Part shown: positions 8,091 through 57,713 of the stretch, piece after piece | How the letters are laid out: the number at the start of each line of letters is the position of its first letter | How positions within the stretch are numbered: the first letter of the stretch is position 1 | Source of the DNA: Octopus sinensis | Lineage: Eukaryota | Assembly (NCBI RefSeq): GCF_006345805.1 | Contig: NC_042999.1 | Span: forward strand, 19,530,001 to 19,594,000 | Length of the DNA stretch: 64,000 bases | Reading direction: 5' to 3' | Program-made: the position numbers and the translations under genes | Notes under the pieces: model-generated | Told to the model about the DNA's origin: nothing | Seen by the model: the letters and a program-made list of their open reading frames with translations, nothing else | Databases searched by the model: none

Positions 8091-10622
8091 CATCATCATC
8101 ATCATCATCATCATCGTTTAACGTCCGTTTTCCGCGCTAGCACGGGTTGGACGGTTCGACCGGGGTCTGGGGAGCCAGGGGCTGCCCCAGGCTCCAGTCT
8201 GGTCTGGCAGTGTTTCTACAGCTGGATGCGCTTCCTAACGCCAACCACTCCGCGAGTGTAGTGGGTGCTTTTTACGTGCCACCTGCACAGGTGCCAGAGG
8301 GGTCTGGCATCGGCCACGATCGGTTGGTGCTTTTTTATGTGCTACCGGCACAGAAACCAGTCAAGGCGGTGCTGGCATCGGCCACGTTCGGATGGTGCTT
8401 TTTATGTGCCACCAGCACAGAAGCCATTCGGGGCAGGGTTGGCATCGGTCACGTTCGGATGGTGCTTTTTATGTGCCACCGGCACAGAAGCCAGTGGAGG
8501 CTGCATTGGCAACGGCCACGTTCTGATGGTGCTGGCGGGGTTGGCAACGGTCACGTTCGGATGGAGCTTTTTATGTGCCACCGGCACAGAATCCAGTGGA
8601 GGCTGCACTGGCAACGGCCATGTTCAGATGGAGCTTTTTATGTGCCACCGGCACAGAAGCCAGTGGTGGCTGCACTGGCAACGGCCACGTTCGGATGGTG
8701 CTTTTTATGTGTCACCGGCACAGGTATCACAACTACAACTGTTTCCATTGATATTTGGTTCGATTCTCATGTACATGGACATGCACTTGACTCAACAGGT
8801 CTCCTCAAGCACAGCGAGATGTTCCGGGATCCCACGATCGGTTGGTGCTTTTTATGTGCCACTGGCACAGAAGCCAGTGGAGGCTGCACTGGCAACGGCC
8901 ACGTTCGGATGGTGCTTTTTATGTGTCACCGGCACAGGTATCACAACTACTGTTTCCATTGATATTTGGTTCGCTGTTCATGTGCCACCGGCACAGAAGC
9001 CATTCGAGGTGGGGTTGGCATCGGTCACGGTCGGATGCTGCTTTTTATGTGCCACCGGCACAGGAGCCAGGGGAGGCTGCACTGGCAACGGCCACGTTCG
9101 GATGGTGCTTTTTATGTGTCCCCGGCACAGGAATCAACAACTGTTTCCATATATATTTGATTCGATGTTCATGTATCGATGTTCATGTATATGTATATGC
9201 ACTTGACTCAACAGGTCTCCTCAAGCACAGCGAGATGTTCCGGGATCCGGGGTACTTTGGATGGGCAGGGGGTATGCGGTACTGGTGCCGGAAGCATCTC
9301 GGGTCTTAGTAGTCACAGCACACCTCCAGAGATCTCGGTCCTTCGCCATTGCCTCAGTGAGGCCCAACGCTCTGAGGTCATGCTTGACTACCTCATCCCA
9401 TGTCTTCCTGGGTCTACCTCTCCCCCTGATTCCTTCAACTGTTCGGGAGTGGCACTTCTTCACACATCTCTCCTCATCCATCCGCAGTACATGACCATAC
9501 CATCGCAAGCGTCGCTCTTGCACACCGCGTCTGATGCTTCTTATGCCTAGCATTTCTCTCAAGGTGCTTACACTCTGTCGTGCATTCACACTGACATTAC
9601 ACATCCAGCGGATCATGCTAGCTTCATTTCTTTCAAGTCTACGCATGTCCTCTGCAGTCACGGCCCATGATTCACTGCCGTGAAGCATGGCGGTTCACAC
9701 ACATGCATCATACAATCTACCTTTCACTCTGAGTGAGAGACCCTTTGTCGCCAGTAGGGGTAGGAGCTTTCTAAACTTTACCCAGGCTATTCGTATTCTA
9801 GTGGTGACACTCTCTGTGCATCCACCCCCACTATTAACTTGGTCACCCAGGTAGCGGAAACTATCAACTACTTCTAGTTTCTCCCCCTGGAGTGTGATGG
9901 AATCTGTTTTTTTAGTGTCTGTGGTGTCTATTGTCCCTATGCATCTGCCGCACATGAAAGCTATCTTATCAGTTAATTTCCCTTTGATGTTGCTGCATCT
10001 CTTATGCGTCCATAGCTTACACTGGGTGCATCTTATGGAGTTTCTACCTACACCTTTCTTACAGCTCGAGCAGGGCCACCTGCCCGATGGGGTGTGTGCT
10101 GAGTTCGCCTTTCTGCATACTATAACTTTGGTCTTCGCTACATTTACTCTAAGGCCCTTAGATTCTAACCCTTGTTTCCACACCCGAAATTTCTTTTTTA
10201 GTTCCGGTAGTGATTCTGCTATGAGGGCCAGGTCATCAGCATAGAGGAGCTCCCAGGGGCAACCTGTTTTGAATTCCTCTGTTATTGCCTGGAGGACTAT
10301 GATGAATAAAAGGGGACTGAGGGCCGAGCCCTGGTGTACCCCTACTTCAACCCGAAATTCTTCACTATATTTGTTGCCAATCCTAACCTTGCTGACAGCC
10401 TCTCTGTATAGAGCCTGTACAGCCCTTATTAGCCATTCGTCAATCAACAGTTTCCGCATCGACCACCAGATAAGGGATCGGGGAACCCTGTCAAAGGCTT
10501 TCTCCAAGTCCACAAAAGCTATGTAGAGGGGTTTATCTTTAGCTAGGTACTTCTCCTGCAGTTGTCGGACCAGGTATATAGCATCAGTGGTGCTTCTACC
10601 TGGCACAAAACCGAACTGCATC
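8091..10622 (-). mobile_element. 5'-truncated RTE-clade LINE with long tandem-repeat 3' UTR and (GAT)n tail
   Basis: RT motifs QFGF, FVDLEKAFD, GVHQGSALSP, YADD, FRYLG; RTE C-terminal LRWYGHVLR and GRPRKTW. Confidence 0.93.
9221..10621 (-). pseudogene. RTE reverse transcriptase C-terminal half with one in-frame nonsense codon
   Basis: ORFs 9695-10621 and 9221-9688 share a frame; TGA at 9695-9697 corresponds to CGA (ACVRTAM) in the copy near 42705. Confidence 0.9.
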
Positions 10623-18434: not shown

Positions 18435-18975
18435 ATCATCATCATCATCATCATCATTACCATCTTCATCATCATTACCATCTTCATCATCATCATCATC
18501 ATCACAATCATCTTCTTCTTCATCATCATCATCATCATTGTTTAGCATCCGCTTTTCATGCTGGCATGGGTTGGAGGATTTGACTGAGGACTGGTGAACC
18601 AGATGGCTGCACCAGGCTCCAAATCTGATCTGGCAGAGTTTCTACAGCTGGATGCTCTTCCTAACGCCAACCACTCCGAGAATGTAGTGGGTGCTTTTAT
18701 GTACCATCGGCACAAGGGCCAGTCAGGCGGTACTGGCAACAGCGATGCTCAAATGGTGTTTTTTATGTGCCACCTGCACAGGAGGCAGTCCAGCGTCACT
18801 GGTAACAACCTCGGTCGAATGTCTTTTTCATGTGCCACTGGCACAAGTGCCAGTAAGGCGATGCTGGTAATATTCACACTCGAATGGTGCTTTTTACGTG
18901 CCACTGACACAGAAGCCTGTTAGCTGCTCTAGCAACGATCACGCTTGGATAGTGCTCTTAGCGCTCCATCATTTC
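18435..18975 (-). mobile_element. RTE 3' UTR fragment with expanded (GAT)n tail
   Basis: Terminal sequence plus about 4 tandem units. Confidence 0.8.
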
Positions 18976-24752: not shown

Positions 24753-25310
24753 GCCCTGATGCAGTACAAGGCAGTGGCTCTCATGGCTTCTGATCTTAAT
24801 TGATTGGAAGTGTTATCATGTACATTTTTTTGTCTTGGTATAAAAGATGGGCTACAGCAAATATTCTGCTCAATACCACAGATTTGCTTGTCAGTTGTTT
24901 GACCTTAACCAGTTGAGCATGTCCCTTAGTGGCTGACGATATGTGCATCTCTGATCACGAGCAGAAGTAGTGGGGGAGCATCATGACCATGTGTTGGGGG
25001 GGGGATTCTTTGGGGTTTGAATAATTCACCTCTGGAAACATGGGTGGTTCTTTCAACATCCTTAAACAACCCTTATTCAGAGACCTTTTGAGCGGGATGG
25101 GCTACTCAACCTGAAGAAAATTCTAACTGGGCCCCACCTGCAAGGTCATGTGCTGTTTATCTTGATATGAGATCACCATGTCGAGAACATATGGTTGTGA
25201 TGCAAGTGCCTGGTGTACCTTTATCAGACGGGTAGTCATGATGGGTATATTGGGCTTCGTATATTTTACCCCAGTGTCACTTTGATAGCATGCACTGCTC
25301 TCTCACTCAA
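24751..25310 (+). mobile_element. About 560-bp non-coding element flanked by (TAA)n
   Basis: Begins GCCCTGATGCAGTAC, ends CTCTCTCACTCAA; second full copy at 51078-51625 with the same ends. Confidence 0.7.
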
Positions 25311-25322
25311 TAATAATAATAA

Positions 25323-25690
25323 TATGCATCTCTGATCATGAGCAGAAGTAGTGGGGGAGCATCATAGCCATGTGTTGAGAGGAATTCTTTGGGGTTTGAA
25401 CAATTCACCTCTGGAAACATGGGTGTTTCGTTGAACATCCTTAAACAGCCCTTATTCAGGGACCTTTTGAGCAGGATGGGTTACTCAACCAGAAGAAAAT
25501 TTTAACTGAGCCCCACCTACAAGTTCATGAGCTGTTTATCTTGATATGAGATCATCATGTCGTGCACACATGGTTGTGATGCATGTGCCTAGTGTACCCT
25601 TATCAGACGGGTAGTCATGATGGGTATACTGGGCCTGGTATATTTTACTCCAGAGTCACTTTGATGGCATGCACTGCTCTCTCACTCAGT
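25323..25690 (+). mobile_element. 5'-truncated tandem copy of the same TAA-flanked element
   Basis: Repeats about 24940-25310; (TAA)n on both sides. Confidence 0.7.
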
Positions 25691-36554: not shown

Positions 36555-36950
36555 AGGTGTAGGAGTGGCTGTGTGGTAAGTAGCTTGCTTACCAACCACA
36601 TGATTCCAGGTTCAATCCAATTGCATGGCACATTGGGCAAGTGTCTTCTACTATAGCCTTGGACCGACCAAAGCCTTGTGAGTGGATTTGGTAGATGAAA
36701 ACTGAAAGAAGCCCATCGTATATATGTATATATATATGTGTGTGTGTATATATATTTGTGTGTCTGTGTTTGTCCCCCCCAACATCACTTGACAACCGAT
36801 GCTGTTGTGTTTACGTCCCCGTAACATAGCGGATCAGCAAAAGAGACCAATAGAATAAGCACTAGGCTTACAAAGAATAAGTCCTGGGGTCGATTTGTTC
36901 GACTAAAGGTGGTGCTCCAGCATGGCTACAGTCAAATGACTGAAACAAGT
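36555..36950 (+). mobile_element. SINE type A, full length
   Basis: Complete head to tail. Confidence 0.87.
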
Positions 36951-37090
36951 GTTTGACCTTAACCAGTTGATCATGTCCCTTAGTGGCTGACAATATGTGC
37001 ATCTCTGATCATGAGCAGAAGTAGGGGAGTATTGTAGCCGTGTGTTGAGAAGAATTCTTTGGGGTTTGAATAATTCACCTCTGGAAACAA
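36949..37090 (+). mobile_element. Internal fragment of the TAA-flanked 560-bp element
   Basis: Matches about 24896-25040. Confidence 0.7.
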
Positions 37091-37517: not shown

Positions 37518-38923
37518 ATAAATGCACGTAACAAGGTGTTATCTATAAATTCCTTAGCAGTTCCAGTTGTTACTTATAGCTACAATGTGTTGAACTGGAA
37601 TATGAGTGAAGTAAAGAATATAGATAGAAAAATACGCAAGCTGATGAGTTGTAATAGGATGCACCACCCAAAGGCAGACGTAGATCGCCTTTACCTCCCC
37701 AGAGGCCAAGGAGGTCGAGGCCTGATCCAATTTGAACTAGCTTACAAAACAACCACAATTGGACTGGCCAAATATCTCGAAATATCGAATGACTGGATGC
37801 TAAAGCTCATGGAAAATCACGAGAGACGAAAGAAGCTTCATTCTATCATAAAGGAAAGCAAAAAATTTGCTATTGATCTCGTGTAGGATACCCAAACTGA
37901 ACAACCCGAGGGAAGTAAGGCAACTATTGTTGCAAAGAAGGTGAAAATGATGGCAATGAAGAAAGCGCACGAGCAATTGGCTGATAGGTGGGAGGAGAAA
38001 CCTCTGCATGGCAAATATGTGACCCGCAGCAAACAAGCTGATGTTGACCAGAAGCAAACCAATCAGTGGCTACGGAGCTCAGGGCTAAAAGCAGAGAGCG
38101 AAGGTTTCATCCTGGCTGCTCAAGATCAAAGCCTATTAACCCGGAACTACCAGGCCAATGTGATGAAAAATGGAGCAGACCTAAAATGCCGATTCTGCAA
38201 CGACATGATTGAAACAGTGGACCACCTAATCTCTGGATGTAAAGTCTTAGTACCAGTGGAGTATAATTAAGACATGACAGAGTTGGCCAATATCTCTACT
38301 GGCTAATAAGTCGGCATTACAATATCAAAACTGCCGACAAGTGGTATAATCACCACCCTGAGGCTGTAACTGAAGGAGAAAATGTAACCATTCTGTGGGA
38401 CTTTCCAGTACATACAGACCGAACCATCAAGGCCAATAAACCAGATATTGTTGTGAAAGACCAAAACAATAAAGTTTGCTTATTGATCGACATGAGCATC
38501 CCCTGTGATCATAATATCTCAGCGAAAGAGTTTGACAAGCTCAGAAAATATAAAGACCTACTCATTGAAATTGAGAAAATGTGGTATCTCAAGGTGGTTA
38601 CAATACCAGTGATCGTAGGAGCACAAGGAATGATCAAGAAGGGAACCGAAAATTATATGAGAATGATCCCTGGCTTACCATCCCTGCAAGAAGTGCAAAA
38701 GATTGTCTTAACTGGTACATCACACGTATTGAGAAGAGCATTGTCGATGTGAGAACTGTTGCTGCTCATGTATTTTAATTTAACTTAAAAAAAAAAAAAA
38801 AATGAACGATCTACTGAGTTTGGTTTAATGGCCTACCAATGTATACTATGAGTTTCTTTGCCCTAGGAGTCGGGAAGACACTCGGCAAGAAATGGAAGCA
38901 AATTTGAAAGAAGAAAAAAAAAA
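37518..38923 (+). pseudogene. 5'-truncated R4/Dong-clade LINE (post-RT region, CCHC knuckle, RLE)
   Basis: RLYLPRGQGGRGL, AAQDQ, CRFC..ETVDHLISGC, RHD, WDFP..NKPDIV..IDMSIP..KY; stop at 37884 and frameshift near 38268; (TAA)n on both sides. Confidence 0.9.
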
Positions 38924-50215: not shown

Positions 50216-50821
50216 AGGAGATTTTTCTTCTCTTGATTAAAGCAAATGAAAGCAAAAAAAATAAATATTAAAAAAAATTTCAAGCTGAGAAGATAATTTT
50301 CTTATGAATATATTCTTAATTTTCACAAAAGATAAAATCATCTTTCGGTGGGCAATGTTGTGTTAATATACAATGGATGAACAAGCTGTAGATGAATTAT
50401 TCTGATTTATATTTTAATTCGGAAAAATATATTACCATTAATATCCCCCAAAGAAATCAATTTATATTCAAATGTATAATTACATTTTCATCAAATCTAA
50501 TTAATAAGTATCAATTCACATCATCATCGTCATGATGTTGTGAACGAAGATACTTCTTCCTAGACATGAAGAAGAAAATATAAGACAATCCTCTGGGACA
50601 GAACAATATTTTATTAGTGGTTGGCATCTTGGGATGATTTACTTGGAAAAAGCAGAGAAAAGAAGCAGAGAAACTTTACTCGTTTATTCTAGTATGTTTT
50701 AATTAGATTTATTATTATTATTATTAGCTTCATTAAGCAAGGTTGTAAATTAGCAGAAATCATTAGAATACTAGAAAACATGCCTTACATTATTATTATT
50801 ATTTTATTATCATTATTATTT

Positions 50822-50955
50822 TTCAGGTCACTATCTGGAATCAAACTCAGAATCTTGGGGTTAGTAGCCTGCACTCTTAACACCATGGTGCAGTGGTTAA
50901 GAGTGCAGGCTATTAATGCCAAGAATCTGAATTCAATTCCAAGCAGTGACCTGAA
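50822..50955. mobile_element. Head-to-head pair of tRNA-like heads (inverted repeat centred on CACCATGGTG)
   Basis: A box TGGTGCAGTGG, degenerate B box, ending CAGTGACCTGAA; mirrored on the minus strand; third copy at 57639-57713. Confidence 0.7.
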
Positions 50956-50995
50956 TAATATTAATAAAAATAATAATAATGATAACAATAATAAT

Positions 50996-51057
<62 letters not shown>

Positions 51058-51077
51058 TGATGATAATAATAATAATA

Positions 51078-51624
51078 GCCCTGATGCAGTACCAGACAGT
51101 GACTCTCATGATCTTAACTGATTGGAAGTGTTATCATGTACATTGTTTTGTCTTGGTATAAAAGATGGGCTACAGCAAATATTCTGCTCAATACCACAGA
51201 TTTGCTTGTCAGCTGTTTGACCTTAACCAGTTGAGCATGTCCCTTAGTGGCTGACGATATGTGCATCTCTGATCACGAGCAGAAGTAGTGGGGGAACATC
51301 ATAGCCATGTGTTGAGAGGGATTCTTTAGGGTTTGAATGATTCACCTCTGGAAACATGGGTGGTTTGTTGAACATCTTTAAACAACCATTATTCAGGGAC
51401 CTTTTGAGTGGGATGGGCTACTCGACCAGAAGAAAATTCTAACTGGGCCCCACCTGCAAGGTCATGCGCTGTTTATCTTGATATGAGATCACCATGTCGA
51501 GCTCATACGGTTGTGATGCATGTGGCTAGTGTACCCTAATCAGACGCGTAGTCATGATGGGTATATTGAGCTTCATATATTTTACCCAAGTGTCACTTTG
51601 ATGGCATACACTGCTTTCTCACTC

Positions 51625-51625
<1 letters not shown>
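51078..51625 (+). mobile_element. Full copy of the TAA-flanked 560-bp element
   Basis: Same ends as 24751-25310. Confidence 0.72.
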
Positions 51626-51670
<45 letters not shown>

Positions 51671-51709
51671 TTGTCACAAAAGATAATATCATCTTTCAGT
51701 AATAACATA

Positions 51710-51769
51710 CCCTAACCCTAACCCTAACCCTAACCCTAACCCTAACCCTAACCCTAACCATAACCATAA
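51710..51769. repeat. Interstitial telomere-type repeat (CCCTAA)8(CCATAA)2
   Basis: Directly visible. Confidence 0.92.
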
Positions 51770-51774
51770 CAACA

Positions 51775-51916
51775 GTGGAAAAATACCGTAGGAATGAGAA
51801 CCCAGGTTCAAAATTCCCTCAGGACAACTGATGAAGGTTGGAGAGTACATCAGCCAAAATGTTGTGTTAACAACAAATAAGATGAGGACAAATGTCCATC
51901 AAATGTAAATAATGTA
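51775..51916 (+). mobile_element. HHR-bearing pLTR-like tail (decayed HHR 51824-51867)
   Basis: acaa-CTGATGA-aggttg..cagcc-AAAA-tg-TT-gtgt; homologous to 56500-56645. Confidence 0.65.
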
Positions 51917-52044
51917 AATGCCTTACATTATTAGTTGGACTCTTATGTCTCCAAGTTCAAATCTTGTCCTAGTCAACTTTGTGCATCATACTTCTAGGGT
52001 CGATAGAATAAGATATCTATCAAGAAGTACAAGATGCTTTAGGA

Positions 52045-56100: not shown

Positions 56101-56548
56101 TGAAATATATGAATATATTATGGCCAGCTCAATTAATATGAAATTTTTCATTGCACATCCATTAACATTTTATCAAATACGCTAGTCTATTTTCCTAAAT
56201 ATCTGCAAAGAGATCTTTAGATCCATTTTGTTTGCATATAACCTTGAAAAAACTGCATACTAAATCATTTCCATGTTACTATAATTTATATTTATATATA
56301 ATTTATACAAACATAGGCACAGGAATGGATGTGTGGTAAGTAGCTTGCTTAGCAGCCACATGGTTCTGGGATCAGTCCCACTGCGTAGCACCTTGGGCAA
56401 GTGACTTTTCCCTATAAAATTTATAATACATGTAAATAAATACATGGCAGTAAAAACAAAACTAGAATGTAAATAATATTTTATATAAAGTAAAAACAAT
56501 GCATTATTTACCTTCGACAGATATTTGTCCTCATCTTGTTTGTTGTTA

Positions 56549-56592
56549 ACACAACGTTTCAGCTGATATACTCTCCAGCCTTCTTCAGGTGT
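56549..56592 (-). ncRNA. Minimal type I hammerhead motif, complete core
   Basis: Minus strand acac-CTGAAGA-aggctg-gagagtatat-cagct-GAAA-cg-TT-gtgt; helix III reduced to palindromic ACGU. Confidence 0.75.
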
Positions 56593-56663
56593 CTTGGGGA
56601 ATTTTCAAACATGGGTTCTCATTCCTAAGGTATTTTTCGATGGTATTATTATTATTATTATTA

Positions 56664-57481
56664 TTTTTTTTTTCTTCTTTCAAATTTGCTTCCATTTCTT
56701 GCCGAGTGTCTTCCCGACTCCTAGGGCAAAGAAACTCATAGTATACATTGGTAGGCCATTAAACCAAACTCAGTAGTTCGTTCATTTTTTTAAATTTTTT
56801 TTTTTTAAAGTTAAATTAAAATACATGAGCAGCAACAGTTCTCACATCGACAATGCTCTTCTCAATACGTGTGATGTACCAGTTAAGACAATCTTTTGCA
56901 CTTCTTGCAGGGATGGTAAACCAGGGATCATTCTCATATAATTTTCGGTTCCCTTCTTGATCATTCTTAGTGCTCCTATGATCACTGGTATTGTAACCGC
57001 CTTGAGATGCCACATTTTCTCAATTTCAATGAGTAGGTCTTTATATTTTCTGAGCTTGTCAAACTCTTTCGCTGAGATATTATGATCACAGGGGATGCTC
57101 ATGTCGATCAATAAGCAAACTTTATTGTTTTGGTCTTTCACAACAATATCTGGTTTATTGGCCTTGATGGTTCGGTCTGTATGTACTGGAAAGTCCCACA
57201 CAATGGTTACATTTTTCCTTCAGTCACAGCCTCAGGGTGGTGATTATACCACTTGTCAGCAGTTTTGATATTGTAATGCCGACTTATTAGCCAGTGGAGA
57301 TATTGGCCAACCTGTCATGTCTTAACTTATACTCCACTGGTGCTAAGACTTTACATCCAGAGATTAGGTGGTCCACTGTTTCAATCATGTCGTTGCAGAA
57401 TCGGCATTTTGGGTCTGCTCCATTTTTCATCACATTGGCCTGGTAGTTCCGGGTTAATAGGCTTTGATCTTGAGCAGCCAT
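56664..57481 (-). pseudogene. 5'-truncated R4/Dong LINE (same family as 37518-38923)
   Basis: AAQDQ, CRFC..HLISGC, RHD, WDFP..PDIV..IDMSIP; (TAA)n on both sides. Confidence 0.9.
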
Positions 57482-57489
57482 ATTATTAT

Positions 57490-57713
57490 TATTTTTAACA
57501 CAACGTTTTGGCTGATCAGCCTTCATCGGGTGTCTTGAGGAAATTTCGAACCTGGGTTCACATTCTGAAGGTAGTTTTTGATGTTATTATTATCATTATT
57601 ATTATTATTATTATTATCATCACTTTTTTTTTTTTTTTTCAGGTCACTGCTTGGAATTGAACTTGGAATCTTGGGGTTAGTAGCCTGTGCTCTTAACCAT
57701 TACGTCGTATACC
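57490..57713 (-). mobile_element. tRNA-like head + A/(TAA)n linker + HHR-bearing tail (decayed HHR 57498-57533)
   Basis: Head homologous to 50882-50955; tail homologous to 51775-51870. Confidence 0.65.

Follow-up and report, generated by a model that had tools for sequence, protein, structure and literature searches.

An autonomous Penelope-like element of Octopus sinensis with a tRNA-derived head in its pseudo-LTR

RESULTS AND DISCUSSION

The flagged locus and its relatives in the window

The window (the whole 64,000-nt stretch of Octopus sinensis DNA analysed) carries at 50822-51919 a composite repeat whose parts are listed in Table 1 together with two related copies. A first-pass annotation, made from the letters alone, had described here a Pol III-type head with an A box and a decayed B box, a TAA linker, a tail of ~140 bp with a minimal hammerhead ribozyme and, at the 5′-end, an inverted partial copy of the head, a hallmark of Penelope-like integration. 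The head, which is tRNA-related, its boxes and the inverted copy were all found as described; the inverted head and head pair (50822-50955) folds as a hairpin with a z of -13.8. The linker does contain TAA repeats, but it is far from simple: the head-to-tail span of 820 bp is composite, with a 547-bp unrelated repeat, a 38-nt filler and (CCCTAA)10 inside it. The tail is likewise present and the hammerhead belongs to the family, yet the core is broken in both copies that had been cited. In the flagged hammerhead AAAAT stands in place of GAAAC and one pair of stem I is mismatched; CCGATGA, AAAAC and an 8-nt deletion mark the second copy (57713-57479). The latter copy confirms that the head-linker-tail order recurs on the minus strand (about 57713-57479). 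A third tail (56640-56502), overlooked earlier, retains an intact core, and its stems I and II form in the minimum-energy fold.

With its ribozyme core mutated and an unrelated 547-bp repeat in its linker, the flagged locus is a dead, fossil copy of a pseudo-LTR (pLTR). Its head and tail most likely belong to one insertion, since the same 547-bp repeat breaks the linker in four other loci (L019, L020, L035 and L211). The filler resembles DNA 1.35 kb upstream; (CCCTAA)10, which we take to be a telomere-type repeat, then grades into the tail and was absent from all other copies inspected. The stretch 51671-51770 may record a break repaired from a local template and telomere-type repeats.

Table 1. 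Coordinates of the repeat features in the window
Feature	Position	Strand	Remark
Inverted partial copy of tRNA-like head, Penelope-type 5′ inversion	50822..50881	-	83% over 60 nt to head
tRNA-derived pLTR head	50886..50955	+	identical to genomic tRNA-Arg(TCT) in 45/77 columns
A box of flagged head, TGGTGCAGTGG	50886-50896	+	
Decayed B box of flagged head	50929-50940	+	
pLTR (TAA)n linker, part 1	50954..51077	+	TRF period 3
547-bp non-coding repeat, unrelated, within TAA linker	51078..51624	+	fixed ends; without long ORF
(TAA)15, linker part 2	51625..51670	+	TRF
38-nt filler akin to local DNA	51671..51708	+	matches 50320-50349 at 90% over 30 nt
(CCCTAA)10	51709..51770	+	TRF
pLTR tail without 37-nt terminal extension	51778..51919	+	
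Minimal type I hammerhead, core broken	51823..51868	+	predicted cleavage site after 51863
Third tail, hammerhead core intact	56502..56640	-	86% to flagged tail
5′-truncated LINE fragment in TAA repeat, between second copy and third tail	56660..57475	-	zinc-knuckle motif in translation
Second copy: head, A/TAA linker, 3′-truncated tail, broken hammerhead	57479..57713	-	

Family size and linkage of head and tail

Genome-wide counts were made in the 2.72-Gb genome (13,516 contigs). Exact 21-mer matches numbered 6,812 for the tail, 3,847 for the head, 808 for the ORF end and 110 for the reverse transcriptase (RT) core; reversed-pattern controls for the exact counts of the tail 21-mer, the head 21-mer and the hammerhead core plus stem II all gave 0. 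Corrected by the fraction of sampled copies that match exactly, the counts correspond to ~20,000 tails (24/70 sampled copies exact), ~1,500 ORF ends (11/20) and ~400 RT cores (9/31); the estimate for the head was unstable (1/17 exact) and was dropped.

The first-pass annotation had proposed to check the co-occurrence and orientation of head and tail genome-wide, and both hold for most of the copies sampled. Of 90 head-anchored copies, 3 were duplicates; among the remaining 87, a tail was present on the same strand, at most 580 nt away, in 76. Conversely, 19 of 30 tail-anchored copies had a head on the same strand at most 700 nt away. By inspection, the 11 head copies without a tail include two that enter the 547-bp repeat, three that enter LINE-like sequence and two with decayed tails. 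A random sample of 40 stretches of 10 kb held two head-tail loci, too few for statistics.

Some loci repeat one another. L185, L186, L188 and L189 (G000:C1 21.69-22.60 Mb) carry identical or near-identical insertions and were counted once in the 5′-end statistics; L324, L327, L328 and L332 carry such insertions at several places and were left uncollapsed in the ORF-start count given below. Both sets suggest segmental duplication or assembly redundancy.

The repeat is the pLTR of an autonomous element

An autonomous Penelope-like element (PLE) has head, linker and tail as its own pLTR. The claim that they form a non-autonomous SINE with a borrowed tail has thus to be given up; the first-pass reading of the tail as a Penelope pLTR stands. 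Protein-coding sequence was seen immediately 5′ of the head in two tail loci, and that piece was used as a search query; in 29 of the 30 loci so obtained the ORF end is followed by the head. The head lies within 1.5 kb of RT in 18 of 30 RT-anchored loci, and in 27 of 30 loci the tail or its extension lies before the start of the ORF, a count that takes in the query, a duplication with four copies and both arms of a single locus. Locus L315 is full length, with head, TAA, tail, extension, ORF, 3′UTR and again head, 2.7 kb from head to head. The order of the element is head-(TAA)n-tail-37-nt extension-ORF (RT, GIY-YIG-like)-3′UTR-head-(TAA)n-tail.

The RT of the ORF is PLE-type (PF00078, E 1e-9), and the RT ORF has 759 relatives at E≤1e-30, the best being 71% identical. 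Pfam gave no GIY-YIG match on the broken endonuclease pieces; an endonuclease piece shares 44% identity over 72 aa with a stretch of relative P0039 that overlaps its Pfam GIY-YIG region. In full-length elements the tail and the ORF start share one reading frame. The peptide encoded by the tail agrees with a relative's ORF at its N-terminus in 10/17 positions (E 0.003), with 42% for the following 214 aa, and relatives P0003 and P0149 likewise begin with the ribozyme-encoded tail peptide.

Copies are 5′-truncated and frequently lie in inverted pairs. Of 75 such pairs, 66 carry the 37-nt extension on exactly one arm, 9 lack it altogether and none has it twice, a pattern drawn for PLEs in the available excerpt of PMC8557442. 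The family belongs to the endonuclease-bearing (EN+) PLEs, whose marks it combines: a PLE-type RT, a GIY-YIG recognized by match to a relative, pLTRs with inversions and extension, and a minimal hammerhead motif. By inspection it would be of the Penelope/Poseidon type, no CxxC linker being seen.

Do the short copies form a lineage of their own? Divergence from the column majority was 7.1% in 81 ORF-linked copies and 6.3% in 127 copies starting at the head, and variants are shared. When variant frequencies of the two sets were compared in 28 columns, the smallest P was 0.003, at a CpG site; only five non-CpG variable columns are comparable, which leaves room for a weak short-only subfamily. With variants and age in common, nothing sets the short copies apart as a SINE lineage, and they would be SINE-like products of the autonomous family. 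Upstream pLTRs begin at the head in three elements (L315, L336 and L337), extend into the ORF end in two (L321 and L343) and are shorter in most; full-length elements are therefore no proof of the start site.

The tRNA-derived head

Box A (TGGCGTAGTGG) and box B (GTTCGATTC) are given here by the commonest letters in 85 head copies. Local alignment of the head to tRNA-Arg(TCT) had a z of 6.3-7.0, the best among 27 genomic tRNA sequences; as these cover six isotypes only, the donor tRNA is not thereby fixed. Four other head copies are identical to tRNA-Arg(TCT) in 46-49/77 columns (60-64%). The 150 of 169 Rfam matches listed for the window contained neither a tRNA nor a hammerhead, and Rfam matched neither in 20 loci. 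ARAGORN at default settings reported 0 tRNAs in the window and 0 in 60 loci; its tRNA-Ser(act) calls on some heads at relaxed thresholds lay amid noise and were discarded. Cutting of the head by RNase P is unlikely, the acceptor and T stems being unpaired on inspection.

The hammerhead

The commonest letters of 320 distinct tails give stem I GACAC/GUGUU, core CUGAUGA, stem II GGCUG/CAGCC, GAAAC-GUU and a palindromic helix III. The proposed consensus check, whether CUGANGA and GAAA are kept, thus came out in favour of the ribozyme (CUGAUGA...GAAAC-GUU), which matches the minimal PLE hammerhead described in the part of PMC4209133 at hand. The motif is intact in 68 of 274 copies spanning it, the exact core plus stem II occurs at 2,897 genomic places, and the chief non-CpG core variant falls on the free position N7 (T 222 / A 59 of 292). 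A dimer requirement is stated for minimal hammerheads in excerpts of PMC4209133 and PMC6765202.

In relatives P0003, P0009 and P0149, from other organisms, the ORF start also appears to encode a hammerhead in frame. Self-cleavage there would part the start codon from the ORF, and a translation switch is possible.

Distribution of 5′ ends, the boundary hairpin and TTTT

The 5′ ends of the 87 head-anchored copies are unevenly distributed: 15 lie within the head, 40 at +3 to -11 relative to its start, 10 at -12 to -29 (several of them where chance extends the copy into a palindrome) and 22 farther upstream. The 15 nt around the head start, a bin picked after the data were seen, hold the ends of 40 of 72 at-risk copies against 3.7 expected from the upstream rate (P 2e-32). 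These 40 peak ends comprise 10 head fold-backs, 13 that adjoin an inverted tail, 14 that adjoin unique DNA and 3 others.

A hairpin sits at the head boundary. It is the most stable 40-nt window of the 620-nt reference and, at -12.2 kcal/mol, its strongest local hairpin (next best elsewhere, -9.7). The peak of 5′ ends (+3 to -7) falls in its loop and 5′ arm, not at its 3′ base; at upstream hairpins of -9.2 to -9.7 kcal/mol there is no pile-up. Head-start copies with a GCCC arm are mostly perfect palindromes, with TAT upstream in 19 and ATT in 5; ATT is upstream in 56 of 81 ORF-linked copies. Flip-flop inversion was weighed as a reading of the AC/GT variation at the palindrome centre and dropped, since CpG decay can account for it.

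TTTT is missing from the 2.5-kb coding strand over 828 codon columns. By codon shuffling, the expected numbers were 2.7 from its own codons (P 0.037) and 3.8 from the codons of other elements (P 0.012); under a dinucleotide model the absence was not significant (P 0.12). This test, counting each column once, replaced a raw-copy count (5 in 10.7 kb versus 19 expected) that was pseudo-replicated. Fifteen control ORFs of the same genome had 51 TTTT versus 42.7 expected, with at least one in 15/15. A second Penelope/Poseidon-type family that could serve as a matched control was not found, all 30 of 30 loci belonging to the tRNA-headed family; a distant relative from a metagenome scan (L319) has 6 TTTT in 759 nt (n=1).

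RNA reads on one locus (L220; three raw runs and a contig set) cover both strands at equal depth in a copy-number-like profile with no piles of starts or ends; 73-77% of the reads continue into unlike sequence, so they are uninformative about a promoter.

Possible origin of the short copies

Of the causes considered for the 5′-end pile-up, we infer Pol III initiation at the head to be the likeliest. Boxes A and B are in themselves no proof of Pol III transcription, as the SINEBase paper warns in its available portion (PMC3531059). The flagged unit is a dead, interrupted copy of the pLTR of an autonomous PLE, and we consider it fairly probable that the tRNA-derived head of this pLTR works as an internal Pol III promoter, the short RNAs from which would be copied by the element's own RT. 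Pol III would transcribe any pLTR, whether at an element end or solitary, starting some 0-7 nt ahead of the head. As a monomer the minimal hammerhead would cut poorly, and short RNAs left uncut would keep the 3′ end where reverse transcription starts, so that the element's own RT could copy them from the extension region. Full-length cDNAs would end in a short palindrome, from which fold-back or template switching could produce the inverted arms. One could go further and speculate that an autonomous Penelope captured a tRNA promoter, that its ~2.9 kb are transcribed whole by Pol III with TTTT terminators purged from the coding strand, and that each terminal repeat is a self-made SINE; we regard this extension as unlikely. 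If true, the uncapped RNA would need cap-independent translation, with a start codon just upstream of the in-frame hammerhead.

The pile-up could also arise in an ordinary Pol II-driven Penelope that carries a passenger tRNA or SINE fragment in its pLTR, through RT pausing, snap-back or processing at the boundary hairpin. That the strongest local hairpin sits exactly at the pile-up speaks for such an origin, as do the mostly perfect palindromes of the GCCC-arm copies and the sharing of all common variants by short and long copies, as if from one RNA; moreover, PLE promoters so far described are LINE-like, among them the internal promoter of D. virilis Penelope (PMC2377424, as excerpted). However, 30 of the 40 peak ends are not head fold-backs, the somewhat weaker upstream hairpins gather no ends, and pausing should presumably leave ends at the stem's 3′ base (+9 to +11), away from the observed peak; the intact boxes A and B and the missing TTTT are left unexplained as well. 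On balance we think this origin possible and not very likely. If it alone holds, the family is an ordinary Penelope whose odd pLTR may be wrongly labelled a SINE in repeat libraries.

An independent SINE that joins a tRNA head to a tail taken from a Penelope partner would agree with the ~57% of head-bearing copies (50/87) whose first base lies between +3 and -29 relative to the head start and with a length and tRNA identity that satisfy the formal thresholds of SINEBase; nevertheless, the head occurs at both termini of the autonomous element itself, and the ORF-linked and head-start copies are alike in variant frequencies and divergence, which makes such a SINE improbable. Still harder to credit are tandem monomers of the retrozyme or Sm-alpha kind, freed by hammerhead cleavage and spread as circles. 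A ~290-nt unit with a type I hammerhead and occasional tail-to-tail tandem joints (L150; a joint of 2646 to 2478 in RNA reads) would fit them, but copies are single or head-to-head without tandem arrays, they end at the head start and ~50-90 nt beyond the cleavage site rather than at it, and the ribozyme is of the minimal PLE type.

Comparison with known elements

tRNA-derived SINEs share with the octopus unit the tRNA head, a length of <700 bp and thousands of interspersed copies; unlike them, the unit has no separate non-autonomous lineage and no LINE partner, and its insertions are PLE-type. Octopus SINEs named OK, OR1 and OR2 were reportedly described by Ohshima and Okada in 1994, OR1 and OR2 being said to be of tRNA-Arg origin. 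In the terms of SINEBase the unit is short, interspersed and present in at least 100 copies, and the four head copies compared above have at least 60% tRNA identity over 60 nt (46-49/77), the flagged copy falling just short (45/77); it does not, however, form a non-autonomous family that is separate from the donor of its RT and has a LINE partner, as the accessible part of PMC3531059 has it.

Known EN+ PLEs, as far as the excerpts of PMC4209133, PMC8557442 and PMC2377424 go, share a single ORF with RT and C-terminal GIY-YIG-like domain, partial-tandem pLTRs, 5′ truncation, inverted 5′ copies, a 30-40-bp extension at one end, and a minimal hammerhead in which stem I has 5 bp and helix III is palindromic. 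What is new relative to these Penelopes is a pLTR that opens with a tRNA-derived box A/B head and a (TAA)n linker, 5′ ends piled up at that head, and a coding strand without TTTT.

Closest in promoter design are the TRIMp3 elements Cassandra, Helenus and Ajax, which in the available text of PMC10886601 have a small-RNA-derived Pol III promoter in the terminal repeat, the boxes kept and the cloverleaf lost. They are non-autonomous LTR elements of <1.3 kb, whereas the octopus repeats flank an RT ORF and belong to a 2.7-kb protein-coding PLE; the same portion of this 2024 paper argues that autonomous partners of TRIMp3 need Pol II. Schistosome Sm-alpha and Sj-alpha, like the octopus unit, have an apparent Pol III promoter and then a hammerhead in a short repeat, but spread as tandem repeats with no autonomous sharer named in the excerpt of PMC6765202; the octopus unit is the pLTR of an RT-encoding element. 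Metazoan non-LTR retrozymes are hammerhead repeats of 170-400 nt suspected of using PLE machinery. They differ from the octopus unit in being tandem and having canonical hammerheads, with no tRNA head mentioned in the sections available (PMC7229834). Tandem monomers bounded by cleavage sites, which typify both groups, are not what the octopus copies are.

A literature search by titles and abstract openings found no description of a tRNA-headed pLTR, nor do the available parts of PMC6962438, PMC7229834, PMC4758252 and PMC8967140 describe one. For Octopus vulgaris, the portion of PMC13282606 at hand lists 190 Penelope-like families and gives no details of their structure; the present family may already be catalogued, its tRNA-head anatomy unremarked. 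Small-RNA promoters are on record for such non-autonomous elements as SINEs and TRIMp3, and a tRNA head in an element's own pLTR blurs the divide between SINEs and autonomous elements. It would offer one element a route to ~20,000 short copies versus a few hundred RT-bearing ones. The family also provides a cheap test of how PLE RNAs start, are cut and are translated, which is still poorly understood.

Other repeats in the window and sampled loci

The 547-bp repeat occurs in the window also at 24753-25688 (with a partial tandem) and 36950-37089, and in 4/40 random 10-kb stretches; it has sharply fixed ends, is mostly flanked by TAA repeats and is probably a non-autonomous partner of R4/Dong-type LINEs. 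The LINE fragment at 56660-57475 (minus) gave a zf-RVT match below the cut-off (E 4e-4) and is 98% identical over 421 nt to one in inverted orientation at 38379-38799, which indicates a recent family; both are presumably of the R4/Dong-like clade. Another RT-like element, distinct from this one, is open without a stop for 615 aa at L094:537-2381; it has no Pfam match and a motif that we assume to be Naiad-like. At L300 (G000:C12 about 22.96 Mb) tRNA-Cys genes of six distinct sequences are clustered within 3 kb. Finally, an array of 67-bp tandem units with long open frames extends over 8264-9132 of the window, and related units lie at 18695-18911.
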